A DNA stretch of 64,000 nucleotides from a virus. Shown here in pieces: positions 25,407-62,542 of this stretch. The stretch is from the IMG/VR virus record IMGVR_UViG_3300045538_000426, positions 58,970 through 122,969 of that record; one strand, written 5' to 3'. The position numbers were made by a program, and so were the translations under genes. The notes under the pieces were generated by a model, which saw nothing but the letters and a program-made list of their open reading frames with translations, was not told where the DNA came from and made no database searches. Within the stretch, counting starts at the first letter, position 1. Every line of letters starts with the position of its first letter.

Positions 25407-25438
25407 AATTTATTAACCGAACGACGTGCGTTCTTTGA

Positions 25439-38480: not shown

Positions 38481-38870
38481 ATGTATCCGTATATGAAAGA
38501 AATCTTTACAAAAATCCTAACAGTAGTTAGTTTAGCCGCTTTGTCCGTGTGGCTGAGTGTATTGGTCGTAGAACACCGTCTTTCCGAACGACAACTTCCA
38601 CCGGTGAAGGTTGCGTGGTCGGTCACGAACTATGTGACATTAACAAACTACTACGTGACAGTCACCAATTTCGTTCCGGTTGTGGTTTCGACAAACGAGA
38701 CATCGACATCGGAACCGATATTGAGCCCCGGCATACCGTTCATATTTAACACACAATCGGTGATAGTTACATCGATCGATCCACCGACGGAAAAAACAGG
38801 TCGTCTTAGACAGATTTCAGAGGAATTAAAAACGATATTGGAAGATTTGAAAGAAAAAGAAAAGAAATGA
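38481..38870 (+). CDS. membrane-anchored hypothetical protein
   Basis: N-terminal hydrophobic helix, repeated TNY/TNF sequons. Confidence 0.65.
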   Translation: MYPYMKEIFTKILTVVSLAALSVWLSVLVVEHRLSERQLPPVKVAWSVTNYVTLTNYYVTVTNFVPVVVSTNETSTSEPILSPGIPFIFNTQSVIVTSIDPPTEKTGRLRQISEELKTILEDLKEKEKK

Positions 38871-44185: not shown

Positions 44186-44692
44186 ATGATAAATGGTGAA
44201 TCATATGGCTGTCTGATGTGTTATATTTCCCGAGACACGGTACCAAAACTAATCAGCGTCGGAAAGAAACTGGTGAAAGATTCTCAACTTTACACCGAAC
44301 CGAATGAGGATTACGGTAGAGAAACCGATCCCCATGTGACTATAAAATACGGATTTACACCTGACCTGACCGACGATGAAGTGAAGAAAATGCTGTCCGG
44401 TGTCAAGAAATTTTCAGTCACCGTGTCTGGCATCTCCACCTTCTCACCGGAGAAATTTGATGTTGTGAAATTTGACGTCGTCCCGAACGGACAGTTGCTC
44501 GATCTCCGAAAACTGGCGGACAAGTTTCCAAATAAAGATAGTCACCCGAACTACCATCCGCACATCACAATTGCGTATGTAAAAAAAGGGTCTTTCCCAA
44601 ACAAAGTCGAGGGAAAGAACTTTACTTTCCTTATAGATAAGATGGTTTATTCGACGAAATCGAACGTTAAAACCGACTATAACCTCCAGTAA
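44186..44692 (+). CDS. 2H phosphoesterase (T4 57B/Acb1-like)
   Basis: Two HxT motifs: PHVTIKYG and PHITIAY. Confidence 0.85.
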   Translation: MINGESYGCLMCYISRDTVPKLISVGKKLVKDSQLYTEPNEDYGRETDPHVTIKYGFTPDLTDDEVKKMLSGVKKFSVTVSGISTFSPEKFDVVKFDVVPNGQLLDLRKLADKFPNKDSHPNYHPHITIAYVKKGSFPNKVEGKNFTFLIDKMVYSTKSNVKTDYNLQ

Positions 44693-44766
44693 AGTCTGTC
44701 TAATTCATTATCTCACAACGAGATAAAAACTTTACTGTAGCGCAAACTCGGTTATACTTATTGAAG

Positions 44767-45315
44767 ATGACTGATGAGACTGTATTTTTCGTAGAAACAG
44801 GAAATTGGAGAGCCAGAGTAATCCTTCCCGTAAAACTCTCCTCTGTGAGCAACTATGATTATATAGAATCAGCTACCCGTGCAATAGAATGTGTATTCGA
44901 TGATAGGAAAGACATTGGGAAGACTTTCGAAATGGTGCATCTATATGACCAGAATAGAAAAGATTATTTTGATGCCGAGTATTCTGGTAACTTAAGCGAT
45001 ATACCAGACCCACTGTTCGGTATGCTTACGGCCTGTTTTTTGGAAAAGGATAAAAACTCCGAAGAGAATTGGTGGTACTTCCTTAGCAGCAAAATTTTTG
45101 CCAATGCGGGGCAACACCGTAACGCATCACTAGCTGAATCGGTTGAGAAAAATTACGAAGCGGAAGTTTCCGAGTTCAAATCCAGAGAAAATGAACTCGT
45201 AGAGTTGGATAAAAAAGGAAAGCTTGGGAAGAAATTAGAAGGCGACCGCAAGAATTACAAAGCTTCGAAGAAAAAGAAGAAATCCCCGCCTAAAAAAGAC
45301 CCGCCTGAAAAATGA
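44767..45315 (+). CDS. hypothetical protein
   Basis: ATG MTDET; basic tail. Confidence 0.7.
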   Translation: MTDETVFFVETGNWRARVILPVKLSSVSNYDYIESATRAIECVFDDRKDIGKTFEMVHLYDQNRKDYFDAEYSGNLSDIPDPLFGMLTACFLEKDKNSEENWWYFLSSKIFANAGQHRNASLAESVEKNYEAEVSEFKSRENELVELDKKGKLGKKLEGDRKNYKASKKKKKSPPKKDPPEK

Positions 45316-45605
45316 ACTTGATTATAAGTTGTGAACTGACCGCTCCTCCTAGCGAAGTGAGTGCTTTTAGAAGTCTCACGATGTACGCAACTATCTTCAA
45401 GAAAATGGATTGTCTCATTGAAGCTGATCCGGAAGAAATCGATTTTTATTATACTTGGTTGAAAAGAAATTATGCTCACGATTTCATTCGACAATTCGTT
45501 AGACGTAAAGAAGTAACCGGCGTGGAATTCAGATACGATAGCATCCAAAGAATAACTCACAACAATTTGAATGAGTTAATTCTTGCGGTAAATACGGTCA
45601 AGTAA
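45312..45605 (+). CDS. hypothetical protein
   Basis: 97-aa ORF. Confidence 0.65.
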   Translation: MNLIISCELTAPPSEVSAFRSLTMYATIFKKMDCLIEADPEEIDFYYTWLKRNYAHDFIRQFVRRKEVTGVEFRYDSIQRITHNNLNELILAVNTVK

Positions 45606-45607
45606 CG

Positions 45608-45826
45608 ATGGATTCTATGAAAATGAAACTACGACGTAAGGTAAAATTGTTTAATATCAAGGAAAGGGAAGATGGTGATTCGACGTTATGTCCTCTCTGT
45701 GATTCTAAGTTGAGTGGATGCCATATTGGTGTATTTTGTTCTGATGAAAAATGTCATTATGTAGATGGCGTCGCGTTTTTAAATGCCGAGGAACAACGAC
45801 GGTATAGTAAAAAAATTGACATTTGA
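45608..45826 (+). CDS. small zinc-ribbon protein
   Basis: CPLC...CSDEKC. Confidence 0.6.
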   Translation: MDSMKMKLRRKVKLFNIKEREDGDSTLCPLCDSKLSGCHIGVFCSDEKCHYVDGVAFLNAEEQRRYSKKIDI

Positions 45827-45987
45827 TGTGATTTTTTGGCCGTTTTCAAAAATTGTTAATATGTATTGGATAATGAACGTAGAATCGTATATACCGTCAC
45901 TGTCTGTGTGGGCACCAGTTGCCCTCGGGAGTGCTGTATTATCAGCCCCTCTCGGGTAACTTTCTAACGGCATATCTTTACATGAAG

Positions 45988-46016
45988 ACCGTTGGAAAAA
46001 CTTCCAACGGTTTTTG
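45988..46016 (+). terminator. intrinsic terminator
   Basis: accgttggaa-aaac-ttccaacggt followed by tttt. Confidence 0.8.
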
Positions 46017-46044
46017 ACATTTTTGGCGTCAGTGAAGAAAGTAG

Positions 46045-46072
46045 TTGACGGATTTGAAAAGAAGTGTAAGAT
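46045..46072 (+). promoter_or_regulatory. sigma70-type promoter heading the tRNA island
   Basis: TTGACG-N16-TAAGAT. Confidence 0.65.
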
Positions 46073-46218
46073 AGTAACAGTTGAATTTGAAACAAGACGT
46101 TCGGTTGAAATTCCGAACCGTAGAGGCAGAGTCTAAAAGAGACAGAGCCGGTCGGGCTAGTCCCGGTCACCACACGATAGGTCAAGCGGCGTCGCTCACC
46201 GAATAGAAAAGAGCTTGT

Positions 46219-46292
46219 GCGGGTATGATGTAATGGTAGCCTATAACTTTGCCAAAGTTGATGCGAGGGTTCGATTCCCTCTACCCGCTCCA
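46219..46292 (+). tRNA. tRNA-Gly(GCC)
   Basis: Cloverleaf, loop TTGCCAA, encoded CCA. Confidence 0.95.
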
Positions 46293-46303
46293 GTAAATTT
46301 AAT

Positions 46304-46378
46304 GGGAGTATAGCTCAGAGGAAGAGCAGGTCCTTTACACGGACAAGGTCGGGATTTCAAAATTCTCTACTCCTACCA
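46304..46378 (+). tRNA. tRNA-Val(TAC)
   Basis: Loop TTTACAC, CCA; atypical T stem. Confidence 0.85.
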
Positions 46379-46474
46379 TTTCAAAAAAAGTAAGGGTTCG
46401 ATTCCCCTGTTCGTCAATGGCCGCTAAATGAAAATAGCCAGTGTAGTTTATGGAGAACGTTTTTGAAATTAAAT

Positions 46475-46551
46475 GGCCTCGTCGTCTACGAATGGATATA
46501 GGATTCTGGATTCTCAATCCGGAGAACTCGGTTCGACTCCGAGCGGGGCTA
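46475..46551 (+). tRNA. tRNA-Glu(CTC)
   Basis: ctgga-TTCTCAA-tccgg; no CCA. Confidence 0.9.
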
Positions 46552-46859
46552 CAGTAGTTAAGGCAAAGTATCCTTTATAATCCTACGCCACACGTACTGT
46601 GGATATGGAAACTTGACAGCTGGAGAGAAAGCACCAATTTAAAAACACCGTCTCTGCATGGAGACGTGAGATATGCCACACACGGGCGATAGTAGTCGGT
46701 TTACGATATGAACAAAATTTTGACTGTAATGGTCACTATTCAAAAGCCGTATAAACTCCATCAATTTAAATCACGGAAGTTAGGGTTCGAGGTCCTTGGG
46801 TCTTCTTGTAGGGAAGACACTTAATGTAAACGGCAGCATAACGTGGTTTGAATATTTTT

Positions 46860-46934
46860 GGGGTGCTGGTGATAATGGTAGCACAGTAGCTTTGCAAGCT
46901 TCGGGTAAGGGTTCGATTCCCTTGCGCTCCACCA
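46860..46934 (+). tRNA. tRNA-Ala(TGC)
   Basis: G3-U70 pair, loop TTTGCAA, CCA. Confidence 0.92.
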
Positions 46935-46936
46935 AT

Positions 46937-47009
46937 CGGTTCGTAGGATAATGGTTATTCCGCCTGCTTTGGGAGCAGGATATTGTGAGTTCGAGTCTCA
47001 CCGAGCCGA
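46937..47009 (+). tRNA. tRNA-Pro(TGG)
   Basis: cctgc-TTTGGGA-gcagg, C1-G72, A73. Confidence 0.92.
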
Positions 47010-47032
47010 CCCGTGTTAGTAGTGTAAATAAA

Positions 47033-47103
47033 CAGTCATAGGTGTTTCGGTAGCATGCAAGTTCTGGAAACTTGGGGGATCCGTTCGACTCGGATATGGC
47101 TGA
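47033..47103 (+). tRNA. tRNA-Pro(TGG), atypical C33/A37
   Basis: cagtcat/atggctg acceptor, caagt-TCTGGAA-acttg, T arm atccg-TTCGACT-cggat. Confidence 0.75.
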
Positions 47104-47172
47104 CAGCGTAGCGCCGGGTTGGATATTGCTCCAGCGGTGATGTGTTAGTGTTAACACCCGGCGGTCACGTAT

Positions 47173-47246
47173 GCTCAGGTGATGTAACTGGAAAACATCC
47201 GGGTTTTAGAAGCCTGGTTTTGTGGGTTCAACTCCCACCTTGAGCA
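47173..47246 (+). tRNA. tRNA-Leu(TAG), short variable loop
   Basis: cgggt-TTTAGAA-gcctg, 5-nt variable region, A73. Confidence 0.8.
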
Positions 47247-47269
47247 CCTTAATTCAGCTGAATTTTAAT

Positions 47270-47347
47270 GGTCACGTAGCCCAATTGGCAGGAGGCAACA
47301 GTTTCAAAAACTGTACAGTGTCGGTTCAAATCCGACCGTGACCACCA
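47270..47347 (+). tRNA. tRNA-Leu(CAA), short variable loop
   Basis: acagt-TTCAAAA-actgt, CCA. Confidence 0.85.
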
Positions 47348-47408
47348 CAGCCCAAAGGCCATTCTTCCTTCGTTTTATACGAATAGAATCTTTGGTGTGT
47401 TTCAAAAT

Positions 47409-47481
47409 GCGGATGTAGCTCAATTGGCAGAGCGCTTGCCTTCCAAGCAGGCTGTTGTGGGTTCAACTCCCATCATCCGCT
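47409..47481 (+). tRNA. tRNA-Gly(TCC)
   Basis: cttgc-CTTCCAA-gcagg, U73. Confidence 0.93.
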
Positions 47482-47492
47482 CAGATAAATTT

Positions 47493-47583
47493 GGTCGATG
47501 TTCCCTATGGCCGTCTGTAAAACGGTTGCATAATAATAAATAGGGCGGACATGCGAGAGGTTCGACTCCTTCATTGACCACCA
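47493..47583 (+). tRNA. D-armless tRNA-Tyr(GTA)-like RNA
   Basis: 7-bp acceptor + ACCA, gccgt-CTGTAAA-acggt, T loop TTCGACT; no D stem. Confidence 0.65.
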
Positions 47584-47678
47584 AACATCACGCTCACCCT
47601 GTATTACACAGCCTATAGCTAGGGCCATATAATGGTGTATTAACCGATTGGATCGGACGTGCCTCTGATGTCTTTGAT

Positions 47679-47764
47679 TGCGGAGACAAGCCGTGGGATG
47701 CTAACTGCGCTCATAACGCAGGCGACGAAAGTCTCTATGGACGGTTCGACTCCGTCCTCCGCTA
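47679..47764 (+). tRNA. tRNA-Met(CAT), initiator-like, long variable arm
   Basis: U1xU72 mismatch, A11-U24, ctgcg-CTCATAA-cgcag, variable hairpin gac-gaaa-gtc. Confidence 0.75.
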
Positions 47765-47931
47765 CATTTTAAACAGGCCAGCGTTTCGGGCTAGCCTGGT
47801 GAAACGAGATAGATTTCTGGAGTAGGGCACGAAACAGAAGAACATCGGTGAAATCCTCGGGAAACCATTTCTTGACTCTTACGGAGATTGATGTAAGATG
47901 TTCAATGTCGGTTGTGAGAGACTCTTTAATT

Positions 47932-48022
47932 GGTTCCATGATGTAATGGTAACATGGCAGACTTATAATCTGTATATGCTCTAGATTGGAGCGCTATCTC
48001 GGTTCGACTCCGGGTGGAACCA
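47932..48022 (+). tRNA. tRNA-Ile(TAT) with long variable arm
   Basis: gcaga-CTTATAA-tctgt; 24-nt extra arm gctct-agatt-ggagc. Confidence 0.8.
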
Positions 48023-48488
48023 CCTTCGAATGATTTGTGACTTTTAGACACATTTCAATAAACTCTTGGGGAGTCATATTAAATTTGGATTGATTGACTA
48101 TTCTTTTGGTTATTGCCAAGTTAGAGAGAGAACTTTCTCCTCCCCTAGAAGCAGGTAGAATATGGTCAAGACTAAAATCATCCTTATCCAATAGATTGAT
48201 TGGTTCTCCAGTCAAATAACATTTTGGCGATGGTCCCAATTTCTTCTTTAAATCCAAAAGAGAGAAATCTACAACTACATTTTTTCGACTTGACCGTAGA
48301 AATTCTTTCCGTTTATAAAACAGAGGATCCGTGGTCTGTTTCTTTTTTGTATATTTATCTTGATTCCTCTTCCTATTTGGATTAAGGTTGTAGTGAACGG
48401 TCCACTCAGAACAACCTAATGTTCTCGCTATTTGTTTATATGTTTTTCCCGACGAGTGAAGTTCTTTAATTTGAGATTGATAATTCAT
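47994..48488 (-). CDS. HTH + HNH homing-type endonuclease
   Basis: KTYKQIARTLGCSEWTVHY; CYLTG...SLDHILPASRGG...N. Confidence 0.85.
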   Translation of the reverse strand: MNYQSQIKELHSSGKTYKQIARTLGCSEWTVHYNLNPNRKRNQDKYTKKKQTTDPLFYKRKEFLRSSRKNVVVDFSLLDLKKKLGPSPKCYLTGEPINLLDKDDFSLDHILPASRGGESSLSNLAITKRIVNQSKFNMTPQEFIEMCLKVTNHSKVVPPGVEPR

Positions 48489-48558
48489 GATGTAAATTAC
48501 TTGTTGTAATATACATATCAAAAATAATAGAAATAGTTAGATATTTCGATAATAAAAT

Positions 48559-48640
48559 GGCCCTGTGACCTAATTGCGAATTGGCACAGCATACAGACTT
48601 AAAATCTGGAGTTTTACGAGTTCGAGTCTCGTCAGGGCTA
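48559..48640 (+). tRNA. tRNA-Leu(TAA), short variable loop
   Basis: Loop CTTAAAA, 6-nt variable region, enlarged D loop. Confidence 0.8.
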
Positions 48641-48652
48641 CCGTTTTCTTAT

Positions 48653-48766
48653 GCCTGTTATGCAGTGAGTTCGATTCTCATACATTCCATAGATGGGATG
48701 GCTGGTGCAGAAATGCTTTGGTTACGTGTTAGATCAACATAATCGGTTCAATTCCGATAATAGGTT
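48653..48766 (+). ncRNA. tRNA-shell RNA with two T-loop arms, no anticodon arm
   Basis: gcctgtt/aataggt acceptor; gtgag-TTCGATT-ctcat and atcgg-TTCAATT-ccgat. Confidence 0.55.
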
Positions 48767-49042
48767 CAGTTGAGTGTATATGACATAATGAATAACGTTT
48801 ATTTGTGTCAAAATGTGGAATAGATTGGGCACGAAACTTCGAATTGAGCTGACCAATCACACTTGACTTTTAGAATCTACGTTGGGCCGCACGGTTTTGG
48901 TTCCGATGTAAGCAGAGGCCGCGGGTGGTGTCCTCGGATGGGTTTAAGTCCCAGACCACCAAATTTAGAATTTCTAAACGAAATATACGATTCGCTGTGT
49001 AGGCTGAATTGTTCGTGTAGAAAAAACACAAAAAAAAAACAT

Positions 49043-49420
49043 ATGAATACATTAGTAAAATACAACGGCGTAACCTCAGACTTGTCAGACATCGTGGATA
49101 GATTTCACGATTGTTTTTGGTCAGATCCTGTGTTTCAACTAAATAGAAACTGGAGACCAACCGATGTATCGGAGACGGACAAATCTGTGGTTGTTGAGGT
49201 GGAACTCCCCCGCTTTAAACGAGAAGATGTAAAGGTGGAAGTTTCCAGCGGAAAATTGTCAATCATAGCAAAAAATCAAAAATCCTCCTACCTAAGAGAA
49301 TTTAGTTATACTGGGTTGGATCTTGACTTAGCTGACGTAAAGCTTCAAGACGGTGTTCTAAGAATTGAAATCCCAAAGATTTCTTCCGAGAAGACCAAGA
49401 AATATCTTGAAGTCAAATAA
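49043..49420 (+). CDS. small heat-shock protein (Hsp20)
   Basis: DVSETDKSVVVEVELPRF, ADVKLQDGVLRIEIPK. Confidence 0.9.
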   Translation: MNTLVKYNGVTSDLSDIVDRFHDCFWSDPVFQLNRNWRPTDVSETDKSVVVEVELPRFKREDVKVEVSSGKLSIIAKNQKSSYLREFSYTGLDLDLADVKLQDGVLRIEIPKISSEKTKKYLEVK

Positions 49421-49426
49421 CAATAT

Positions 49427-49445
49427 GGACCGGTCTTTCCGGTCC
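49427..49445 (+). terminator. GC-rich hairpin after hsp20
   Basis: ggaccgg-tcttt-ccggtcc; no clear U-tract. Confidence 0.45.
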
Positions 49446-49449
49446 TAAT

Positions 49450-49524
49450 GGGAATGTAACTCAACGGTAGAGTGTTGCGGTGACAACGCAAAAGTAGTTG
49501 GTTCGACTCCAACCATTCCCACCA
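49450..49524 (+). tRNA. tRNA-Val(GAC)
   Basis: ttgcg-GTGACAA-cgcaa, CCA. Confidence 0.92.
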
Positions 49525-49611
49525 GATTGAAGAAAATGGTGCTAGATTTGAGAGGTAAACGTAACCCGCTCTTCCCCGATAGGGAAAAATTTCAAATCAC
49601 TTCAACATTTT

Positions 49612-49772
49612 GTAGATGTAGCGGTGGAGAAGTGCCACTAGAACATGAGTAGTTCGTAAATAGGTGTGTGATGTTCCCGACAGTGGGGAAAAACGGAAAC
49701 GGCCGTAACAACGGTGTAGCCGCCCGCGATAGTCAAAAATACGCCATGGAGGTTCAATCCTTCCCATCTACA
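49612..49772 (+). ncRNA. 161-nt tRNA-shell RNA with inserted structured domain
   Basis: Perfect gtagatg/catctac acceptor, A73, T arm ggagg-TTCAATC-cttcc. Confidence 0.6.
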
Positions 49773-49782
49773 ATCCCTTTAT

Positions 49783-49860
49783 GGTCACGTAGCCCAATTG
49801 GCAGGAGGCGCAACATTGAGCGTGTTGACAGTGTGAGTTCAAATCTCACCGTGACTACCA
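49783..49860 (+). tRNA. tRNA-Leu(GAG), short variable loop
   Basis: caaca-TTGAGCG-tgttg; paralogue of 47270; CCA. Confidence 0.85.
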
Positions 49861-49937
49861 CGATGCAGAGGTCGGTAATTACAGTAATGGATTCTTTGTA
49901 AAGGCCTTCAAAAGAAACCAACCGTAGGCAACAATTT

Positions 49938-50245
49938 GAAAACGTGGTGCGTGATAAAACGCAATGGGAACTAGACCACAACGATCCGGGACGAAAGAAA
50001 AGGATTGATAAATTATAGTTCTCATGTCGATTGAGACGGTGCGAAAATCCGATGGTGTCGCGACAGACATATTGAACATACCAAAATCGATTGTAAGTGT
50101 TCAGTCTATGGGGAACCAAGCGGTGAGGAGATAGGGGTGGATGGCAAGCTGTGACGGCCGACCTCATTACTATCCAACAATCACAAGGCACCCATAACGC
50201 AGGGCCAGTCTTAGACATATGCGGGTCCGAATCCCGCCGTTTTCA
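49938..50245 (+). ncRNA. about 308-nt RNA: tRNA-Met-like shell with large insertion
   Basis: gaaaacg/cgttttc acceptor; 3' half cataacgcagg + variable hairpin + T arm, paralogous to the 47679 tRNA. Confidence 0.5.
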
Positions 50246-50282
50246 TCATTGACTTTAGAAAATCACACTATATCATAGATTC

Positions 50283-50993
50283 ATGTCATACAACAAAAAC
50301 AACGTAGGTACAGCGATGCACACGGTTCGGAATGTGAACCAACTTTCCTCGGAACATACTCCTCAAATGACAGTTGAGGAAAGGTTAAGAGAAGGGGCTG
50401 TTACACACGTTCGATTGAAAGCCAGAAATTCTACTGATGCAAGTATTTTAGAATCTCTGTCATCGAAATTGGTAAAATCTGTATCAGATGAACAAAAAAA
50501 GGAAAATATCCACAGATGGTTCAAGGACAAAATTAAGAATTCTTATTACGATTTTTTCAAATCAGACGAGGGCAGATTGGATATTAAAATTTGGTGTCAT
50601 AACTGTCAGACTTACATGAAAAGTTCCGAATTAAATTGGGACGTTGAAGGAAACGCCTACTGTAAAAAATACCCAATATGTTATTCACAGTATTACGAAT
50701 TTGATTTGTGGTTAATTTCACAAATTTGGAATATTCCACTTAAAGTAAAGTATTCAAATGAAGAAGAACAATACTTTGAACTTTTGAAGAGACAAGACCA
50801 GATTGAAAAGAACATATCGTTCCTTTACCGTAAAGGTATAGAAAATCAACGAATGAAAGATTATAGATTAGAATCTAAGGAAGTGAGAAAAAAGATAAAG
50901 GAATTTGAGAACATCATAGCAGACTCCTTACACGAACAGTTTCCTCCTGGCGCTCCTGAGGTAGAGATGTTGTCTTCATTACAACATTTTTAA
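50283..50993 (+). CDS. hypothetical protein with zinc ribbon
   Basis: CHNC...CKKYPIC; promoter TTGACT-N16-TATCAT upstream. Confidence 0.7.
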   Translation: MSYNKNNVGTAMHTVRNVNQLSSEHTPQMTVEERLREGAVTHVRLKARNSTDASILESLSSKLVKSVSDEQKKENIHRWFKDKIKNSYYDFFKSDEGRLDIKIWCHNCQTYMKSSELNWDVEGNAYCKKYPICYSQYYEFDLWLISQIWNIPLKVKYSNEEEQYFELLKRQDQIEKNISFLYRKGIENQRMKDYRLESKEVRKKIKEFENIIADSLHEQFPPGAPEVEMLSSLQHF

Positions 50994-51071
50994 TTGACCT
51001 TCAATTTCCGACTCCTCTGGGATCATAAAGACTATATGCAGCCATCTAAGCGATACAGGTCGGAACAATTT

Positions 51072-51100
51072 GATTAGAAGGAAACTTCTAATCGATTTTA
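51072..51100 (+). terminator. GAAA-capped hairpin, terminator-like
   Basis: gattagaag-gaaa-cttctaatc then gatttta. Confidence 0.5.
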
Positions 51101-51101
51101 T

Positions 51102-51169
51102 AGCGTGGCTACTGGGTAGTGCGGAAACTCCAAATCTCTGCTTCGTCGGTTCGATTCCGACTCACGCTG
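51102..51169 (+). tRNA. tRNA-Trp(CCA), minimal D arm
   Basis: Loop CTCCAAA, G73, T arm gtcgg-TTCGATT-ccgac. Confidence 0.8.
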
Positions 51170-51191
51170 CCGTGTCAAAGTAGTTTATAAT

Positions 51192-51275
51192 TGGTATGTG
51201 GCGTAATGGCAGCCGCGCTAGTTTTAGAAGCTAGTGGAGAAATCCGTGCAGGTTCAAGTCCTGTCATACCAACCA
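51192..51275 (+). tRNA. tRNA-Leu(TAG), normal long variable arm
   Basis: ctagt-TTTAGAA-gctag, gga-gaaa-tcc arm, CCA. Confidence 0.92.
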
Positions 51276-51276
51276 T

Positions 51277-51352
51277 CGGGGTATAATGTCAATGGTAGAC
51301 GGTCTGGTCCGGAGCCAGAAGGTTGCGAGTTCAAGTCCCGCTACCCCGACCA
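51277..51352 (+). tRNA. tRNA-Pro(CGG), atypical C33/A37
   Basis: tctgg-TCCGGAG-ccaga, C1-G72, A73, CCA. Confidence 0.8.
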
Positions 51353-51495
51353 GTGTTAGTTGGGTATTCATCAAATTAAAAACTCAACTGCATGTTTAAT
51401 TGGATTTAGAGCGAAAACGTAAATCTGGGTCGTGGTGCTGAACCCGGTTATAACCAAACCAGCCACGGGGTGTCTATTTCCTCTAAAAATAGAAT

Positions 51496-51567
51496 GGCCC
51501 ATTCGTCTAGTAGTTAGGACGGATCCCTTTCAAGAATTAGAAGACGGAGCGTAACCGTCATGGGCTA
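51496..51567 (+). tRNA. tRNA-Glu(TTC), non-canonical T loop
   Basis: Loop CTTTCAA; T arm gacgg-AGCGTAA-ccgtc. Confidence 0.8.
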
Positions 51568-51568
51568 C

Positions 51569-51893
51569 AGTTTAACACGGTCGATCTATAGCGGGTGTAG
51601 AAATACATCTGAGGAAGTTCGCGCCACCAAAGCAGATGATTGGGAGAATATGTTCACTCATTAGAGTGATAAAATAGACGGTGTATAATCGGAGTGAAAG
51701 TCTCTGAGGGATGGTCGGTTACAAAATAATCCAATACACGGCCGTTAGTTCCGACCACATATTCATTAATACCACATATTAGGTGCAAGCCAAACAGAAC
51801 CGAGGGTAGTGCTTCCCGTTATGGTAGGTTCGGGTTGGCGCATAGTCAAATTATAGAATAAAACAGAAGCGCGGCTACATGATACGTTAAACT
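51569..51893 (+). ncRNA. rnpB: RNase P RNA (catalytic subunit, A-type, lacking P18)
   Basis: GAGGAAGTTCGCGC and AACAGAAGCGCGGCTAC form P4; P1, P2, P3, P5 (cacc/ggtg+CAAG), P6 (aagca/tgctt), P15 and P16 all pair; GTGAAAG S-domain motif. Confidence 0.9.
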
Positions 51894-51896
51894 AAT

Positions 51897-51973
51897 GGTC
51901 AGGTGATGTAATTGGAAAACATCTTTGTCTCAGAAACAGAGTTTTGTGGGTTCAACTCCCATCTTGACCACCA
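51897..51973 (+). tRNA. tRNA-Leu(CAG), short variable loop
   Basis: tttgt-CTCAGAA-acaga; paralogue of 47173; CCA. Confidence 0.85.
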
Positions 51974-51974
51974 T

Positions 51975-52142
51975 ATGAAATCGAAACAAGACAGAATCAA
52001 ACATGAGACTGAATACGTCGCATTTCTTGAGAAACGGTTAGCAAGCAAAAATTTTCATAATAACTCGACCAACGGGGAAATTGAAACTACCAAGGTAAAG
52101 TTAAAGAAAGCAAAGTTGGTTTTGAGAATGTTGGCGAATTAA
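51975..52142 (+). CDS. small basic hypothetical protein
   Basis: ATG 1 nt after tRNA CCA; MKSKQDRIKHE... Confidence 0.6.
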   Translation: MKSKQDRIKHETEYVAFLEKRLASKNFHNNSTNGEIETTKVKLKKAKLVLRMLAN

Positions 52143-52144
52143 AT

Positions 52145-52232
52145 GGGCGGTTATCCCGTAGGGGTAGCGGTACGCGCTGTAAACGCGTTGTCTTAACGGA
52201 CTCGGGTGGTTCAACTCCATCACCGCCCACCA
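52145..52232 (+). tRNA. tRNA-Tyr(GTA)
   Basis: acgcg-CTGTAAA-cgcgt, long variable arm, CCA. Confidence 0.93.
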
Positions 52233-52453
52233 TGAAAAATAAAAACAAGGTTTTGTCGGAAATGCTCGATAAATACAACGCCAATAGAGAAGAACACCAA
52301 CGAGTTCATCTTTGGACATTGGGTTTGATGACTGCTGGCTTGATTGGCAAGACTATTAACACTCGTCGTCCGGTGGATAGTCCTCGGATGAAAGCGAATA
52401 TAGCTAATTCACATATGAAAACATTGGAAGGAACGGTGGTTTTAAATAAATGA
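52232..52453 (+). CDS. hypothetical protein
   Basis: ATG shares its A with the tRNA-Tyr CCA. Confidence 0.55.
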   Translation: MKNKNKVLSEMLDKYNANREEHQRVHLWTLGLMTAGLIGKTINTRRPVDSPRMKANIANSHMKTLEGTVVLNK

Positions 52454-52468
52454 TTACTATTTATAACC

Positions 52469-53032
52469 ATGAGACAATTTAAATCATGGTTATTTATAGG
52501 ATTGGTTGTATGTCTATCGTTACTCCCCATCGGATGTGGGAATGGTGAGAGCAACTCAACCAAAGTCGCTTTACCACCACCGCCGACAAAAACATTCAGT
52601 TCGACGGAAATTTACAACTCAATGGCGAGTATTGGAATACTCACAGAGAAAGCGGTAATATCCGATGGTCTGTATGTTCTAGCTAAACGTGAATGGGTGG
52701 AAAAAGAGTTTTCATCAGGTTTATCCGCTTTTCAATTTCAGTTTGGAATAAACAACTGGAACGCAGAATCCAATGATTGTGATAAATTTTCAGGGGCTGC
52801 TTCGTTTTATTTAAGATGGTTGAACCATTCTTCTCCGAATCGAAATGTAAAGGCTGCCTTAGCAGCCGGGGAAGTTTACTATCGTACAGACCAGGGGCAA
52901 AATCACGCCATCAATCTTTTCATATTGGAGAAGGACGGTGTATTGACGCCCAGCTTCTACGAACCGCAGACTCGTCGTTTCGTGACATTATCACAGTCGG
53001 AAATATTTTCGGTGTTTTTTTGGAAATTATGA
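52469..53032 (+). CDS. lipoprotein with papain/transglutaminase-like (MOA C-terminal-like) domain
   Basis: PIG|C lipobox-like; DCDKF...HAIN...FYEPQ. Confidence 0.65.
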   Translation: MRQFKSWLFIGLVVCLSLLPIGCGNGESNSTKVALPPPPTKTFSSTEIYNSMASIGILTEKAVISDGLYVLAKREWVEKEFSSGLSAFQFQFGINNWNAESNDCDKFSGAASFYLRWLNHSSPNRNVKAALAAGEVYYRTDQGQNHAINLFILEKDGVLTPSFYEPQTRRFVTLSQSEIFSVFFWKL

Positions 53033-53151
53033 AAAAACTAACTCTCATTCTCATGTTCTTCGTCGTTATGTTAGGTCAAGCGTGTAAGACAGTGGAAACG
53101 ATAAAACCGACAATACAGAAACCCCCGGTTAGGTTTACATTAAACGATTGA
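53029..53151 (+). CDS. small lipoprotein (40 aa)
   Basis: MKKLTLILMFFVVMLGQA|C. Confidence 0.55.
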   Translation: MKKLTLILMFFVVMLGQACKTVETIKPTIQKPPVRFTLND

Positions 53152-53181
53152 CTCATTAGATTTCCGTGATATCATCCTTCC

Positions 53182-53550
53182 ATGGGTGAACAAGAAACTT
53201 TGGACGAAATCTTCGGAGAAACTCCGATTTGGAAGAATACCTACAAGATAAAATGGTGTGAATTGTGTCGGACGGCTATCATTGTTTGTCCTGTTTGTAA
53301 AAACACTTCGTGCAACGGCAGCGGATGTAAAGAGTGCAACGATGAGTTTGATTTATTCAATAAGTCTAAGTCGTGTGTCGAAGATTATCTCACCGACAGT
53401 GAAATCGAAGCTTACAACAAAGCTATCTACATAAAACAATTCATCCTCAAGTCGCTTGGTAGAAATGAAACGGAAATTGATTTCAAACGGATGAAGGACG
53501 CGGGCGAACTTTCGGAGTTGACAGAGAAGATGTTTTCCGATAGACTATAG
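53182..53550 (+). CDS. Cys-rich hypothetical protein
   Basis: CELC, CPVC, CNGSGCKEC; promoter TTGACT-N16-TATCAT. Confidence 0.7.
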   Translation: MGEQETLDEIFGETPIWKNTYKIKWCELCRTAIIVCPVCKNTSCNGSGCKECNDEFDLFNKSKSCVEDYLTDSEIEAYNKAIYIKQFILKSLGRNETEIDFKRMKDAGELSELTEKMFSDRL

Positions 53551-53558
53551 AAAGTAAT

Positions 53559-53648
53559 GGGAGTATATTGGCGGTGTTTCCTAAACACTTAGTGCATAAT
53601 TGGATAGCCGGAAGGCGGATGTGGGTTCGAGTCCCTCTACTCCCACCA
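53559..53648 (+). tRNA. aberrant tRNA(CAT)-like RNA
   Basis: Perfect gggagta/tactccc + ACCA, T loop TTCGAGT, 7-bp D-like hairpin, weak anticodon stem, loop TGCATAA. Confidence 0.55.
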
Positions 53649-53654
53649 AATAAC

Positions 53655-53852
53655 ATGAACATGGGACGAATGTTGGACGAAGGTAATTACACTCTCGACG
53701 AAGAGTTATTTATAGCAAATAACTGTTCCATTGAATTGTGTGAATCGTGTGGAGATTATTTCGCAATTCATCCCGACTATTGTTATGTCGGTAGAAACAA
53801 TTTTGTTGAATTGACATTTAGTGGACAATTTTGTTGTCAGAAATGTAAGTGA
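53655..53852 (+). CDS. small zinc-binding hypothetical protein
   Basis: CESC...CQKC; ATG 6 nt after tRNA CCA. Confidence 0.55.
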   Translation: MNMGRMLDEGNYTLDEELFIANNCSIELCESCGDYFAIHPDYCYVGRNNFVELTFSGQFCCQKCK

Positions 53853-53857
53853 TAATT

Positions 53858-53942
53858 GGATGATAAACCCGAAAGGTTTGGGAACTGCCTCGAAAACAGA
53901 TTGCGCCCTAAAAAGCGTGGGCTTCGATTGCTCTGTCATCCG
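53858..53942 (+). tRNA. tRNA-Ser(CGA)
   Basis: Loop CTCGAAA, long variable arm, G73. Confidence 0.8.
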
Positions 53943-53990
53943 CAGAAAACAAATCATTGACTCCTTATAGAAATCGAATACTATCAAACA

Positions 53991-54512
53991 ATGAATGTAA
54001 GAGATCATTTGAAGGATTTGAGTGTAGATGCAATCAAGAACTACTGTTCGGAAAATTGTGTCGATGCAGCGGTGGCAATGATGCACACTGAAGGTGATTT
54101 CAATCTTTCTAACGTATTTCGAACAACGAACTTCTTTGGAATTCGAGAGGCTTATTATATCGCAGGTCAGAAGCAGTGGGATAGACGCGGAGCAGTTGGT
54201 GTCCACCATTATACACCTGTCAATTACTGCAAGACGGTGGAGGATTTTTGGGCAATAATCACAGAAAAGGGTTATACCCCGGTGGCCATTGAGAATAACA
54301 CTAATTTCGATTGTCAGAACATTTTTACTTATACTTGGCCGGAGAAGCCAGTCATTATTTTAGGAGAAGAACAGACGGGTATTCCCACTGAAGTCTTGAC
54401 TAACTGCAAGAGTGTGGTTACAATTCCCGCGTTCGGTTCAGTCCGTTCTCTTAATGTGGGTAGTGCAGCAGCAATTGCTATTGCAATGTATAGGAATCAA
54501 ATTGGAAGGTAA
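53991..54512 (+). CDS. TrmH/SpoU-family (SPOUT) RNA 2'-O-methyltransferase
   Basis: NLSNVFRT, IILGEEQTGIP, IPAFGSVRSLNVGSAAAI. Confidence 0.9.
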   Translation: MNVRDHLKDLSVDAIKNYCSENCVDAAVAMMHTEGDFNLSNVFRTTNFFGIREAYYIAGQKQWDRRGAVGVHHYTPVNYCKTVEDFWAIITEKGYTPVAIENNTNFDCQNIFTYTWPEKPVIILGEEQTGIPTEVLTNCKSVVTIPAFGSVRSLNVGSAAAIAIAMYRNQIGR

Positions 54513-54589
54513 AACCGATAGGTTTGGTCAGTGATTGGAAATCACTTGGGCGCCTAAAAAACGCTGAGTTTCGAATACTCTGCCTTCCG
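54504..54589 (+). tRNA. tRNA-Ser(GGA)
   Basis: agtga-TTGGAAA-tcact, G73; 5' end overlaps the last 9 nt of the methylase gene. Confidence 0.85.
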
Positions 54590-54595
54590 CATCAT

Positions 54596-54814
54596 TCACT
54601 TCATTATCGAAATCATGTGAGTTCCGGTCAATGAAGGAGTGTAATAATTGTTTGTATTTCCACGTTTCTCATACAGTGGAATTGTCCGATTGCCGTCCTT
54701 GTCAGTATAACCTTTCCGTATAAGTTTATAATCTTCATTATTTACGCGGACGTTATATGGGTCAGAACAAGCCGTTAGTAAAGCCAAAGTCAAGATATAA
54801 AACATGTTTCTCAT
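54596..54814 (-). CDS. small lipoprotein
   Basis: MRNMFYILTLALLTA|C. Confidence 0.6.
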   Translation of the reverse strand: MRNMFYILTLALLTACSDPYNVRVNNEDYKLIRKGYTDKDGNRTIPLYEKRGNTNNYYTPSLTGTHMISIMK

Positions 54815-54859
54815 GACAATAACTATTGAAGTAATGATTGAATGTGATAAGATATAAAC

Positions 54860-55369
54860 ATGCAAACATTTCTACCTCATGCGGATTTTTACGAATCGGC
54901 CAAGTGCCTAGACGACAAGCGTTTAGGAAAGCAACGAGTTGAAGGGTATCAGATTCTAAAATCCCTATCAATCGGGCCGTATCAGAGATTTCACGATAAT
55001 AGTTGGACAAGTTGTGATGAAACGACTTACAAGTTGTTAAAATCAATGAAGATAAAGAAATTGGTCAGAAAGACACCGTGGTATAATCACCCGGCCACAA
55101 AAATGTGGCGCGGCAACGAACGTAAGTTACGAGAGTATACCGAGGTTGTATGCAACGTGTGGGTCAGTCGTGGGTTTAAAGATACTATTGTAGAAAAACT
55201 CAAAAGTATTTCATGTCAATTTTCAAAAAATCTCTCATATCCCAGCTGGCTTGGAGATGTATCATTTCACGCGTCACATCGATCTAATTTGTTAAGAAAG
55301 AATAAAGGGTGGTATTCTAAGTTTAATTGGTCGGAACGAGACGACCTACCATATGTTTGGCCACAATAA
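54860..55369 (+). CDS. pyrimidine-dimer glycosylase-related (DenV/MSMEG_6728-like) protein
   Basis: MQTFLP...LDDKRLGKQRVE...HPATKMW...HASHRSNLLRK. Confidence 0.8.
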   Translation: MQTFLPHADFYESAKCLDDKRLGKQRVEGYQILKSLSIGPYQRFHDNSWTSCDETTYKLLKSMKIKKLVRKTPWYNHPATKMWRGNERKLREYTEVVCNVWVSRGFKDTIVEKLKSISCQFSKNLSYPSWLGDVSFHASHRSNLLRKNKGWYSKFNWSERDDLPYVWPQ

Positions 55370-55415
55370 TGTAGTTTATCAACGGTGATTTCTAAAATCA
55401 AATATAGTTATTAAT

Positions 55416-55676
55416 ATGGTTGATAGAGATGGTATAAAACAACTCAGCGTCTATCTTGATCTGTGTGGTGAACGACAGGTTTTGCTCGAAACCGTCTGGT
55501 TGGCATTTCGTTATAAAGACACTCACAAGGGATGGGACGTAAATAAGTGCTTTGAAGAAGCTCTTTGGAATGTCATGCTTGCCGAAGCCAAACGTGAGGT
55601 TAAAGTTGACCTAAAAGCCACCGTGGATAAAATTAACAGTATTTCTTCAATGGGTGCTGTCAAGAAATCCGGTTGA
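55416..55676 (+). CDS. hypothetical protein
   Basis: 86-aa ORF. Confidence 0.6.
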   Translation: MVDRDGIKQLSVYLDLCGERQVLLETVWLAFRYKDTHKGWDVNKCFEEALWNVMLAEAKREVKVDLKATVDKINSISSMGAVKKSG

Positions 55677-55700
55677 CAGTTTTAGAATCCGGTGTATAGT
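55673..55700 (+). promoter_or_regulatory. sigma70-type promoter upstream of the large ncRNA
   Basis: TTGACA-N16-TATAGT. Confidence 0.75.
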
Positions 55701-55885
55701 TATTTCAAGGTTAGTTGAGTGTAAGCGAAAATCCTTAAATTAAAAACTCGACGGTGTGATAAATACCTAAAGTTATCCGTTTGCCAGTAACGACAATGCA
55801 GCAAGATTTGTGTGGTATTGACTTGACCACACCTTTTTATCGAATTTATGTCAAAATTCGACGCTTTGTAGATTGTTCTTTGTAG

Positions 55886-56692
55886 TAAGTAAAATTTGGG
55901 GGCCTGACCCCGTGAGATAACCCGTCGTAAGGCGGTAAAAGCAGAAACTCCCTAACGAGACTGCGCCGTAGCAATACGGACACTCAGGCAACTGACAAGA
56001 TCAGTGTCTTTCACTCAAAAGGTGGAAGTATGTCTGAAGCTGGATTGGGAAATGGTGACTGAGGGTAACACTGTAAGTCATCTACTAACGGCACCGCCGA
56101 GCTCTACCAGTTCCTTAACGGGAACAGCCAAGAATAAGATCTAAGTCAAACAAATAGATACAAGCCCGCAAGCAAGTGTTTATCTGTAGAAAGATAGAAA
56201 GTGGCCAGGGTAACCAGGACATAATCTTGAAATTCGGTGAAGTATCCGCAAGAGAAACACAAATGGTGTGTGGTATATTGGTTCCCAAAAGGAATTGATG
56301 TCACAAGTAACGCACGTCATTGTTAGGTGCATATTATATCCTTGGTAGATATTACATATTATACAAAAAGCAAAGTCGTTACTTGTGTTCGTCGAAAAGA
56401 ACGTAACTCTGAGGCCGTAAGGTAACTCAGACAACGAAGCGCTCGCAAGGTGTTAGTTGTTGATCCGAGTTTGGACGTGGTCCGCAAGACCTAATTGCTC
56501 GCAAGGCAACCGTTTGAATAGAGGTTGATTAGATGAACATTAAAGATGAAAAGCCTCATCTCTAAAAAGGCCGTTCTGTCAAATACAGACATAAACCGTA
56601 AGGTTGTGGATGTGGATATATCGGGAAAGCAGCCCGCAAGGTTGTAATAATCCGATTAAAGGTTGACACGAAACACTGTAGTCTCAGGTTTC
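55886..56692 (+). ncRNA. GOLLD-like giant structured RNA (boundaries approximate)
   Basis: About 0.8 kb without a credible ORF, more than 10 short GNRA-capped hairpins, set among tRNAs; segments gtgtggtatattggttcccaaaagg and ctgtagtctcagg resemble GOLLD as I recall it. Confidence 0.7.
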
Positions 56693-56756
56693 ATTTTAAA
56701 AATTAGTCTCTTTTAGGGTTTAAAACACTATTTATAGTTAAAGGAACATTAAACCA

Positions 56757-57164
56757 ATGCCAAACGTATATAGTATTAAAACATGTATAAATTGTGGAAT
56801 CTCTAAGAGAAGTAATGGAAAAAAGTTTTGTGGACCGAAGTGTCAACATGATTTCAATTACAAAGAAAAGATAAAATTGTGGTTAGACGGAAAGCACGAT
56901 GGGATGCGGGGAAAAACATCCACGGCACATTGGATTAAAAGATATATCACCGAAGTACGTGGACATCAATGTGAATGTTGTAAAATTAAAGAGTGGATGG
57001 ATAGGTCGATATCTTTAGATTTAGAACATAAAGACGGAAATTTTAAAAACAATAAAATTGACAATCTTGGTCTAATTTGTCCGAACTGTCACAGTCAGAC
57101 GGATACATATAAAGGTAGAAACAAAAAAGGAAGGCCTCGTTCTAAGTATTATAGAGGATTGTAA
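56757..57164 (+). CDS. HNH endonuclease
   Basis: CINC...FCGPKC; LEHKDGNFKNNKIDNLGLICPNCH. Confidence 0.9.
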   Translation: MPNVYSIKTCINCGISKRSNGKKFCGPKCQHDFNYKEKIKLWLDGKHDGMRGKTSTAHWIKRYITEVRGHQCECCKIKEWMDRSISLDLEHKDGNFKNNKIDNLGLICPNCHSQTDTYKGRNKKGRPRSKYYRGL

Positions 57165-57165
57165 T

Positions 57166-57252
57166 GGATAGGTGGCTGAGTGGATTAAAGCGGTGCTCTT
57201 GAAAAGCACAGGGGCCTAAAAACCCCCGGGGGTTCGAATCCCTCTCTATCCT
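57166..57252 (+). tRNA. tRNA-Ser(TGA)
   Basis: gtgct-CTTGAAA-agcac, long variable arm, U73. Confidence 0.9.
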
Positions 57253-57279
57253 CCGTAGTTAGGTAAGTGGTGTAAATAT

Positions 57280-57368
57280 GGAACGGTGGCCGAGTCTGGC
57301 TTATGGCGGAAGTTTGCTAAACTTCTGAGGCCTAAAAACCTCCACAGGTTCGAATCCTGTTCGTTCCG
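57280..57368 (+). tRNA. tRNA-Ser(GCT)
   Basis: gaagt-TTGCTAA-acttc, long variable arm, G73. Confidence 0.92.
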
Positions 57369-57371
57369 CAG

Positions 57372-57411
57372 CAATTCCTCCGATGACGTAATTGTTATCG
57401 GAGGAATTTTC
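57372..57411 (+). terminator. intrinsic terminator closing the tRNA island
   Basis: aattcctccgat...atcggaggaatt followed by ttc. Confidence 0.75.
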
Positions 57412-60065: not shown

Positions 60066-60103
60066 TTCAATAAATATAATCCCCACCGAGTAAACTGGAT
60101 AAA

Positions 60104-62456: not shown

Positions 62457-62542
62457 CATTCGGAGAAAACCAGATACAGTATTGATACGACCTGATTTAG
62501 ATGGGTCGTCAAAAAACAAAATAGAAAGATACAGATAACTCT

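Follow-up and report, generated by a model that had tools for sequence, protein, structure and literature searches.

A putative RNase P RNA in the tRNA island of a probable jumbo phage and its viral relatives

Do phages carry their own RNase P RNA, and, where such an RNA lies among many tRNA genes and other unusual RNAs, do all these elements work as one system? This question is raised by positions 44186 to 57411 of the window analyzed here, which makes up the final 64 kb of a viral contig of 122,969 bp in IMG/VR (record IMGVR_UViG_3300045538_000426, hereafter G000; CheckV completeness 41%). Since 122,969 bp correspond to a completeness of only 41%, the source virus is probably a jumbo phage. 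The segment combines an array of tRNA genes with a putative RNase P RNA, a GOLLD RNA, larger RNAs that end like tRNAs ("shell" RNAs), and genes for a SpoU-family methyltransferase and a 2H phosphoesterase. A first-pass annotation, made from the sequence alone, had taken them together as a self-contained system for the maturation of phage tRNAs and for decoying host nucleases. We compared the window with the sister phage, which is its closest relative (G001; record 49% complete), with a 304-kb relative (G022; 89% complete), and with further records, most of the records compared being fragments. The observations of the first-pass annotation turned out to be largely right, and its interpretation as an integrated system is mostly not supported. 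The region is probably, though far from certainly, a jumbo-phage island of tRNAs and noncoding RNAs that acts as a hot spot of independently acquired modules, and not one co-inherited system.

A putative RNase P RNA and its viral family

A 325-nucleotide (nt) RNA on the plus strand (51569-51893) occupies the whole spacer from the end of tRNA-Glu(ttc) at 51568 to the start of tRNA-Leu(cag) at 51897. This RNA covers the whole archaeal RNase P RNA model of Rfam (RF00373, RNaseP_arch; 36.4 bits, E = 2e-7). Its terminal helix P1 pairs 51569-76 with 51886-93 and is followed by P2 (51585-91 with 51851-57) and P3 (51592-51611). Conserved region I (CR-I) lies at 51611-24 and CR-V (ACAGAA) at 51863-68, and the P4 helix is formed by 51616-24 with 51869-76. 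We aligned 13 family members with MAFFT as a plain sequence alignment, and the helices were checked by RNAalifold, by pair counting and with scripts. In this alignment the P4 helix, which joins CR-I to CR-V and contains a bulged U, has eight pairs that are 100% paired in the 13 sequences, and all four of its variable pairs have been changed on both sides (GC, AU, CG and others). P4 with the bulged U, P5, P15 and P16 were recovered by RNAalifold unguided. Among the cells of these four helices 96.3% are paired, compared with 20-37% after a shift of the partner columns by 1-3, and 48 cells are changed on both sides, compared with 2-12 after such a shift. The observed covariation score was reached in none of 500 shuffles. 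The strands of P1 and of P2 differ between members and yet are complementary in 13 of 13. Invariant in the alignment are GAGGAA in CR-I, CAA in J5/15, GGU in L15, and ACAGAA...GGCU(A) in CR-V. A candidate P6 between the J5/7 region and L17 (AAGCA/UGCUU in the window) is seen in most members as complementary 5-8-nt pairs of differing sequences, too short to score better than shuffled sequences. Judged from this covariation, which extends over the whole family, 51569-51893 is a real RNase P RNA homolog and a conserved structured RNA despite its 36.4 bits, as the first-pass annotation had proposed.

Several observations weigh against this assignment, or at least against an ordinary RNase P RNA. 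The score stays below the curated Rfam threshold (gathering score 84). CR-I reads GAGGAAGUUC, and the bacterial consensus is GAGGAAAGUCC, so that one A is missing or substituted. In several members, P1, P2 and P6 did no better than shuffled controls when tested in single sequences. The specificity domain (S-domain) is reduced and almost gone in the relatives, which would mean weaker binding of the tRNA elbow, so that activity may be low or specificity altered. The full S-domain (P7-P14, CR-II and CR-III) is not present in the window copy, which has only partial strings resembling CR-II and CR-III. The two strands of P5 are separated by about 155 nt in the window, by about 80 nt in the sister phage, where about 75 nt of the S-domain have been lost relative to the window copy, and by fewer in other members. 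At family sizes of 200-325 nt, the window copy, with its partial S-domain, is the largest member.

The family was delineated by scanning IMG/VR for two core motifs while leaving P4 unconstrained, which gave 22 loci. In 16 of the 22, GAGGAAGTTC followed by four further nucleotides is found 103-192 nt upstream, and these four nucleotides match, as a perfect reverse complement, the four bases that follow ACAGAA; the loci represent nine different P4 cores. A scan for the bare 15-mer of CR-I gave three true loci (two distinct RNAs) among 119 hits, the rest being mostly chance matches. Two members from complete phage genomes, L127 (131.8 bits) and L138 (101 bits), pass the threshold of the bacterial type A model (RF00010, RNaseP_bact_a), which ties the family to the bacterial type A lineage. 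Most loci are in or beside tRNA arrays of 7 to 28 genes, and wherever the strand was checked the RNA is on that of the tRNAs. Thus, the association of this RNase P RNA with tRNA arrays is robust. When the pattern of the IMG/VR scan was searched in 185,579 prokaryote genomes, one per species, only three true matches were found: two chromosomal RNase P RNAs of archaea and one RNA within a 15-tRNA array on a contig of a bacterial metagenome-assembled genome (MAG). The family is therefore essentially viral. No gene for the RnpA protein was found in any of 17 viral contigs carrying the RNA, including five that are at least 94% complete.

One member is found in a cultured phage. In blastn searches of six members (the window copy, L126, L127, L133, L135 and L138) against 50,697 GenBank phages, the sole match was that of L133 to the T4-like Stenotrophomonas phage DLP6 (vB_SmaS-DLP_6), and the other five had none. 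The DLP6 copy is an unannotated 245-nt RNA on the plus strand (KU682439.2:105774-106018; L310:1305-1549), situated in a 30-tRNA cluster just upstream of tRNA-Arg(CCG). Its P1, P2 and P4 are compensated, and it has no Rfam match at E ≤ 1; RNase P is not mentioned in the paper on DLP6. Similarly, a census of 12 relatives of the window phage with RF00373 gave no match (0/12), and a clear copy was then found in the 304-kb relative by the motif-plus-complement script. Absences based on Rfam were discounted, since Rfam missed both of these copies. The other 11 relatives were scanned for GAGGAAGTTC with a check for the CR-V partner, a search that copies with a different CR-I would escape. In literature searches, whose coverage leaves out most subscription journals, no report of an RNase P RNA encoded by a phage was found. 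A transfer-messenger RNA (tmRNA) accompanies the mini RNase P RNA and the tRNAs in some viral contigs (L132:2547-2927 and 8829-9077; L294:12191-12571 in G022).

The tRNA array and its aberrant members

ARAGORN called 20 tRNAs between 46219 and 57369, all on the plus strand, and Rfam added a 21st firm tRNA (51277-51349). At the 85% threshold of ARAGORN, 25 tRNA and tRNA-like genes are called on the plus strand, in good agreement with the 26 counted in the first pass, so that about five weaker tRNA-like genes stand beside the 21 firm ones. CCA is encoded in 10 of the 21 firm tRNAs and not in the other 11; the first-pass count was 14 of 26 without it. The first block (46219..48024) comprises Gly, Val, Glu, Ala, two Pro, two Leu, Gly, Met (87 nt) and Ile-UAU (93 nt), in the same order as in the sister phage. 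Within its limits lies a Tyr-like tRNA (47492-47583), which folds with an acceptor stem, a GUA anticodon loop, a T arm and ACCA. Further downstream are tRNA-Val(gac) and tRNA-Leu(gag) on the two sides of one shell RNA (49450..49860), followed by tRNA-Trp, Leu(tag), Pro(cgg) and Glu(ttc), the last without encoded CCA (51102..51568). Beyond the RNase P RNA come tRNA-Leu(cag) and tRNA-Tyr(gta) (51897..52232) and, at the end of the array, tRNA-Ser(tga) and tRNA-Ser(gct) (57166..57369), these blocks having been called by ARAGORN and Rfam. Among the extras gained at the lowered threshold, Ser(gga) at 54504-54590 is a class II tRNA-Ser(GGA) with a cloverleaf fold (z = -2.8) and 77% identity to the sister phage.

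Some features of the array are of note in their own right. The five or six tRNAs with Leu anticodons (47173-51973) are, except for that at 51192 (84 nt), only 73-78 nt long and thus without the long variable arm found in bacterial tRNA-Leu. The discriminator is A73 in the four whose 3' ends were inspected, and similar short ones occur in the sister phage and in G022. A tRNA-Ile(UAU) of unusual length (92-96 nt) is shared by unrelated phage tRNA arrays that also have the mini RNase P RNA (47932-48024 in the window; L126:11309-11404; L127:2088-2182; L141:5623-5715; L310:269-360). A CUA anticodon, of the amber-suppressor type, is carried by one tRNA of the sister phage (L124:3028-3102), which ARAGORN labeled "Pyl", and ARAGORN called no tRNA with this anticodon in the window. 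Two stretches without convincing open reading frames (ORFs), 45830-46218 and 53655-53943, share about 83% identity with the sister phage, above the adjacent coding DNA, and could contain further small RNAs. The former includes a strong terminator-like hairpin ahead of the tRNA array (45983-46016).

Three larger tRNA-shell RNAs had been described in the first pass. Two of them are conserved in the sister phage, and for the third no conserved match appeared there. Shell RNA A (309 nt, 49937..50245, plus strand) has an 8-bp acceptor-like closing stem next to a T arm and a variable middle. Its flanks are 90-91% identical to those in the sister phage, its middle differs in length, and five pairs are compensated, including one in the T stem. 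Models of group I introns and of tmRNA were among those searched, and neither identity has Rfam support for shell A. Shell RNA B (164 nt, 49610-49773, plus strand) is likewise tRNA-ended, with a 9-bp closing stem and a T-arm-like hairpin. It is 84% identical to its counterpart, with one compensated pair, and matches no Rfam family. Both are absent from G022. The third, at about 48653-48766, has no conserved match in the sister phage for 48640-48773. The corresponding plus-strand calls, a weak tRNA-Leu(taa) (48567-48639) and a tRNA-like RNA that is part of an RNA described earlier as having two T loops (48686-48765), appear at the ARAGORN 85% threshold only, with a partial Rfam tRNA match of 20 bits (48567..48765) and fold z-scores near 0. 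Another tRNA-like RNA on the same strand (53559-53648; ARAGORN 85%) is 90 nt long and has a 7-bp acceptor stem, a T arm and encoded ACCA, together with a weak tmRNA match (16.6 bits) and a fold z-score of -0.3.

An acceptor stem and a T arm make up a minimal RNase P substrate. The aberrant RNAs carry both, and for this reason they should be handled like tRNAs. It is possible, if not the likelier case, that these RNAs are instead decaying or interrupted tRNA genes, either pseudogenes or genes with an unrecognized intron or insert, and are neither decoys nor mimics. The length difference in the middle of shell A, the HNH endonuclease genes scattered in the island (47994-48521 and 56757-57164), the z-scores near 0 of the weak calls, and the lack of a conserved match for the third shell RNA all point in this direction. 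On the other hand, the two phages agree at 84-91% identity in the flanks of shells A and B, compared with a nucleotide identity of 67-75% for proteins of the same region, the T stem and inner helices are kept by compensated pairs, and neither a group I intron nor any other Rfam family was matched.

Proposed action of the RNase P RNA and organization of the island

We propose that the tRNA array would be transcribed as multi-tRNA precursors, from which the RNase P RNA could be released by processing of the tRNA ends on both sides. It would then cleave the 5' leaders of phage pre-tRNAs together with the RnpA of the host, which is presumed because no phage RnpA was found, and might thus offer extra 5'-processing capacity for a sudden load of phage precursors. 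The RNA has kept P1-P5, P15-P17, the candidate P6 and the P4 with its bulged U, and the GGU of L15 is the element that binds CCA.

Alternatively, the RNA may not be a tRNA-processing enzyme at all, and may act as a sponge for host RnpA or pre-tRNA, shifting maturation in favor of host tRNAs or against them, or as a ribozyme retargeted to non-tRNA substrates. The strongly reduced S-domain, with only 103-192 nt from CR-I to J15 in the relatives, the lack of a phage RnpA in the 17 viral contigs, and the departure of CR-I from the bacterial consensus would all fit such a role. It is disfavored by the catalytic core, which is invariant in the 13 members (the bulged-U P4, CAA in J5/15, GGU in L15 and ACAGAA...GGCUA), and by the location inside tRNA arrays, which fits a role on tRNAs. 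Natural RNase P RNAs without an S-domain (type T of Pyrobaculum) and constructs of the catalytic domain only are active. We regard the sponge or retargeted ribozyme as unlikely, and processing of phage pre-tRNAs is retained as the working model.

Several protein genes of the window make up an RNA-maintenance toolkit. The 2H phosphoesterase noticed in the first pass is encoded on the plus strand at 44186..44692 (Pfam 2_5_RNA_ligase2, 50.7 bits; LigT_PEase). This LigT/2H protein is closest to RNA 2',3'-cyclic phosphodiesterase, with a match to NCBIfam TIGR02258 below the cut-off. The gene is found at the syntenic place in the sister phage and is absent from 15 other viral contigs carrying the RNase P RNA. 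At 53991..54512 on the plus strand lies the gene for a SpoU-family RNA 2'-O-methyltransferase (Pfam SpoU_methylase, PF00588, 89 bits). Its best equivalog match in NCBIfam is TrmH, at 50.7 bits against a cut-off of 227, so that no defined tRNA target is assigned. A homolog (47% identity) is present in G022, and none was found in the 49%-complete record of the sister phage. The first-pass statement that a SPOUT methylase abuts Ser tRNAs is correct for tRNA-Ser(GGA) at 54504, which is overlapped by the stop codon of the SpoU gene. It does not apply to the Ser pair at 57166, where the ORF encodes an HNH endonuclease.

Two further assignments of the first pass, a Pnk-like kinase and a cyclic-phosphate receiver protein, were borne out on the minus strand. 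The Pnkp-like polynucleotide kinase (21136-21600; Pfam AAA_33, 80.9 bits; kinase-domain match to TIGR04075, E = 4e-23) adjoins the cyclic-phosphate-processing receiver protein cREC (21606-22013; Pfam cREC_REC, 72.2 bits). The adjacent pair is also found in the sister phage, and both proteins occur in G022. The probable metallophosphoesterase (37304-38053, minus strand) had also been pointed out before. Its Pfam match is weak and below the cut-off (Metallophos_2, E = 0.002), and the assignment is favored by a 45% identical homolog that lies directly beside the kinase in G022. There, at G022:C1:151921-153007, kinase and metallophosphoesterase are adjacent, resembling a split Pnkp, and the two are 16 kb apart in the window. 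An RNA ligase was not found (no RtcB or RNA_ligase match in the 41%-complete G000). The sister phage has a weak Rnl-like ORF (RNA_ligase, 25.4 bits, below the cut-off). In our model, the 2H protein, cREC, the Pnkp-like kinase and the phosphoesterase could heal RNA ends cut by host tRNA nucleases, and SpoU may methylate some RNA in the pool.

No enzyme for CCA addition was found in the contig. The nucleotidyltransferase at 38867..39913 (plus strand), to which a CCA-enzyme-like tail had been attributed, belongs to a phage-specific family resembling DNA polymerase beta and PolX (PHROG "DNA polymerase"; more than 250 homologs). In its AlphaFold2 model, which has a mean pLDDT (predicted local distance difference test) of 87.5, the top Foldseek matches in the PDB are polymerases lambda and beta (template modeling scores of 0.31-0.38), and no CCA enzyme is among the PDB matches listed. 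The protein has no Pfam match, and no match to PolyA_pol was found anywhere in the contig. Its reading as a CCA enzyme was therefore rejected. The gene is shared with the sister phage and is found in 12 relatives, 11 of which have no RNase P RNA signature, the protein of G022 being 55% identical.

The GOLLD RNA is well supported. The Rfam model RF02032 is matched at 216.9 bits, above its gathering score of 150, over model positions 1-416 of 416, which confirms the GOLLD-like RNA seen in the first pass. The modeled 3' core lies at 56261-56690 (plus strand), and a block of 88% identity over 1045 nt with the sister phage (55662-56697) begins 600 nt upstream of this core. Conservation back to 55662 fits the known variable 5' half of GOLLD, so that the whole RNA can be placed at 55662..56697. 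A promoter-like motif, TTGACA and TATAGT spaced by 16 nt, is found at 55673-55700. GOLLD directly abuts tRNA-Ser in the sister phage, and in the window an HNH gene lies between the two. This insertion (56698-57164) is clean relative to the sister phage, which has no counterpart for it (cf. L124 near 4352-4361). The gene itself occupies 56757..57164 on the plus strand (PHROG HNH families, E = 2e-23). Another HNH gene, encoding a homing-type endonuclease with an N-terminal helix-turn-helix, is found at 47994..48521 on the minus strand (Pfam HNH_4). Small ORFs, like the HNH genes, are scattered among the tRNA and tRNA-like genes, and it is evident that HNH endonucleases are still inserting into the island.

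Co-occurrence of the parts had been put forward in the first pass as the test of a common system, and the comparison does not support joint inheritance. The comparison includes 18 unrelated records with the RNase P RNA, namely 15 viral contigs, DLP6, the MAG contig and one further contig. Five of the records are at least 94% complete; SpoU and 2H were looked for in 16 of the 18, and DLP6 was checked for GOLLD and not for SpoU or 2H. GOLLD is absent from all 18, including the complete DLP6 genome, and SpoU and 2H are absent from all 16; cREC is present in a few unrelated records (G014, G016 and DLP6). Among the closer genomes, the window phage, with about 25 tRNAs at 41% completeness, has the RNase P RNA, GOLLD, SpoU, 2H, the kinase with cREC, and shells A and B. 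The sister phage, with 23 tRNAs in the two stretches scanned, has all of these except SpoU, which was not found in its record. G022, with 37 tRNAs and a tmRNA, has the RNase P RNA, SpoU, the kinase, cREC and the phosphoesterase, and lacks GOLLD, 2H and the shells. Eleven further relatives, all of them fragments, have neither GOLLD nor the CR-I/CR-V signature. Thus, the combination of GOLLD and RNase P RNA in one island was observed only in the lineage of the window phage and its sister. Kinase, phosphoesterase, cREC, SpoU and RNase P RNA recur together in G022. These results show that the protein toolkit for tRNA maintenance is conserved in the phage group and scattered over the genome, and that GOLLD, 2H and the shell RNAs are lineage-specific additions. 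In the favored model, GOLLD would be a separate, known passenger of tRNA islands.

Some caution is needed in weighing the modular interpretation. The absences are soft because most of the records are fragmentary, the Rfam model missed the RNase P RNAs of G022 and DLP6, and G000 is only 41% complete, so that an RnpA or a CCA enzyme could still lie in the remainder.

We regard as quite improbable the integrated, self-contained system for maturation and decoy, in which RNase P RNA, GOLLD, SpoU, 2H and the mimics serve a private tRNA pool, with the mimics absorbing or evading anticodon nucleases. All of its parts are found within 13 kb on one strand, the sister phage keeps the order of tRNAs, RNase P RNA, shells A and B, GOLLD and 2H, the shell RNAs retain an acceptor stem and a T arm, and GOLLD cages have been proposed as tRNA holders (PMC12286853). 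It is disfavored by the distribution just described, that is, by the lack of GOLLD, SpoU and 2H in the unrelated carriers, by G022, where the RNase P RNA and 37 tRNAs are accompanied neither by GOLLD and 2H nor by the shells, and by the failure to find SpoU in the sister phage. In addition, the end-healing genes are 7 to 25 kb away from the island, and the set would not be self-sufficient, since neither RnpA nor a CCA-adding enzyme was found. What is left of the earlier proposal is an RNA-maintenance set of RNase P RNA, SpoU, 2H, kinase, cREC and phosphoesterase beside about 25 tRNAs, with CCA addition removed from it. An RNA-only machine, in which the GOLLD cage, the RNase P ribozyme and the shell RNAs together process, shelter or decoy phage tRNAs under host nuclease attack, with the lost S-domain admitting tRNA-like RNAs without a normal elbow, seems very improbable.

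Relation to known systems and other genes of the window

RNase P RNA is regarded as a ribozyme common to all cells. If our assignment is right, a virus-specific and miniaturized family of RNase P RNAs would mean that phages bring their own catalyst for tRNA processing, and the family would offer dozens of natural experiments on the minimum size of this RNA. We see the viral RNase P RNA as the most valuable part of the island. Since Rfam misses most members, current phage annotation is blind to them, and with the copy in the cultured phage DLP6 the question can be put to the test in the laboratory. The phage RNAs share with bacterial type A RNase P RNA (M1/rnpB of E. coli, RF00010) P1-P5, P15-P17, the candidate P6 and the core motifs. 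They differ in being virus-encoded within tRNA arrays, in their length of 200-325 nt compared with about 350-400 nt, in an S-domain that is a stub in most members, in the frequent lack of P18, in the CR-I sequence, and in that no cognate RnpA gene was found. Type T RNase P RNA of the Thermoproteaceae (Pyrobaculum) has kept the catalytic domain and lost most of the specificity domain. It is archaeal and chromosomal, is the only RNase P RNA of the cell, and works with archaeal proteins. The phage family likewise has a reduced specificity domain, but descends from bacterial type A and would stand beside the host's own enzyme.

The other parts of the island are better known. GOLLD near phage tRNA islands is established and the structure of its cage has been solved (PMC12286853; PMC6582537), and the cages have been proposed to hold tRNAs (PMC12286853). 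The RNA of the window agrees with published GOLLD (RF02032) in its full-length match, in its variable 5' half and conserved 3' core, and in its place in a phage tRNA cluster beside tRNA-Ser. It is unremarkable in itself, and only the sharing of an island with an RNase P RNA is different. A counter-defense theme of jumbo phages, including many tRNAs, RNA repair by 2H, cRec, kinase and ligase, and NAD salvage, has been described by Iyer et al. (2021; PMC7824862), in which neither RNase P nor GOLLD is mentioned. The window phage shares with this toolkit 2H, cRec, polynucleotide kinase, phosphoesterase, many tRNAs, and NAMPT with NMNAT-Nudix, and differs in that no RNA ligase was found in the 41%-complete contig. 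Phage tRNAs are reported to escape tRNA-cutting defenses (PMC10264068, PMC11555353, PMC11464382). What is already known is therefore GOLLD beside tRNAs and the RNA-repair toolkit of jumbo phages, and what is new here is a phage ribozyme gene and two conserved tRNA-ended RNAs. Pnkp and Rnl1 of T4 form a tRNA repair system. Compared with this type, the 5'-kinase and the cyclic- and 3'-phosphate esterase side are present, whereas the sealing ligase was not found in G000.

The remaining genes of the window are those of a large phage, including a DNA methylase, a clamp-loader-like AAA protein, a helicase, ClpP, a thymidylate synthase and a dCMP deaminase, together with YopX, GIY-YIG and HNH endonucleases, and a 1,348-residue protein with Ig domains. 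Two ORFs (5163-6491 and 58653-60146) had no match in sequence searches of the PDB. At 61488-63973 on the plus strand, a fusion of NMNAT and Nudix adjoins NAMPT as an NAD-salvage pair, the NAMPT having a counterpart in G022 (51% identity). Two large genes on the minus strand (22041-26857), of the PSCyt1/PSCyt2/PSD1 (DUF1549/DUF1553) and DUF1501 families, are of the Planctomycete type and lie amid phage genes. As possible auxiliary genes of host origin, they may hint at a host among the Planctomycetota and Verrucomicrobiota. The thymidylate synthase (31590-32774, minus strand) has 394 residues and matches a Pfam profile of 266 positions from end to end, and thus has roughly 125 extra residues.

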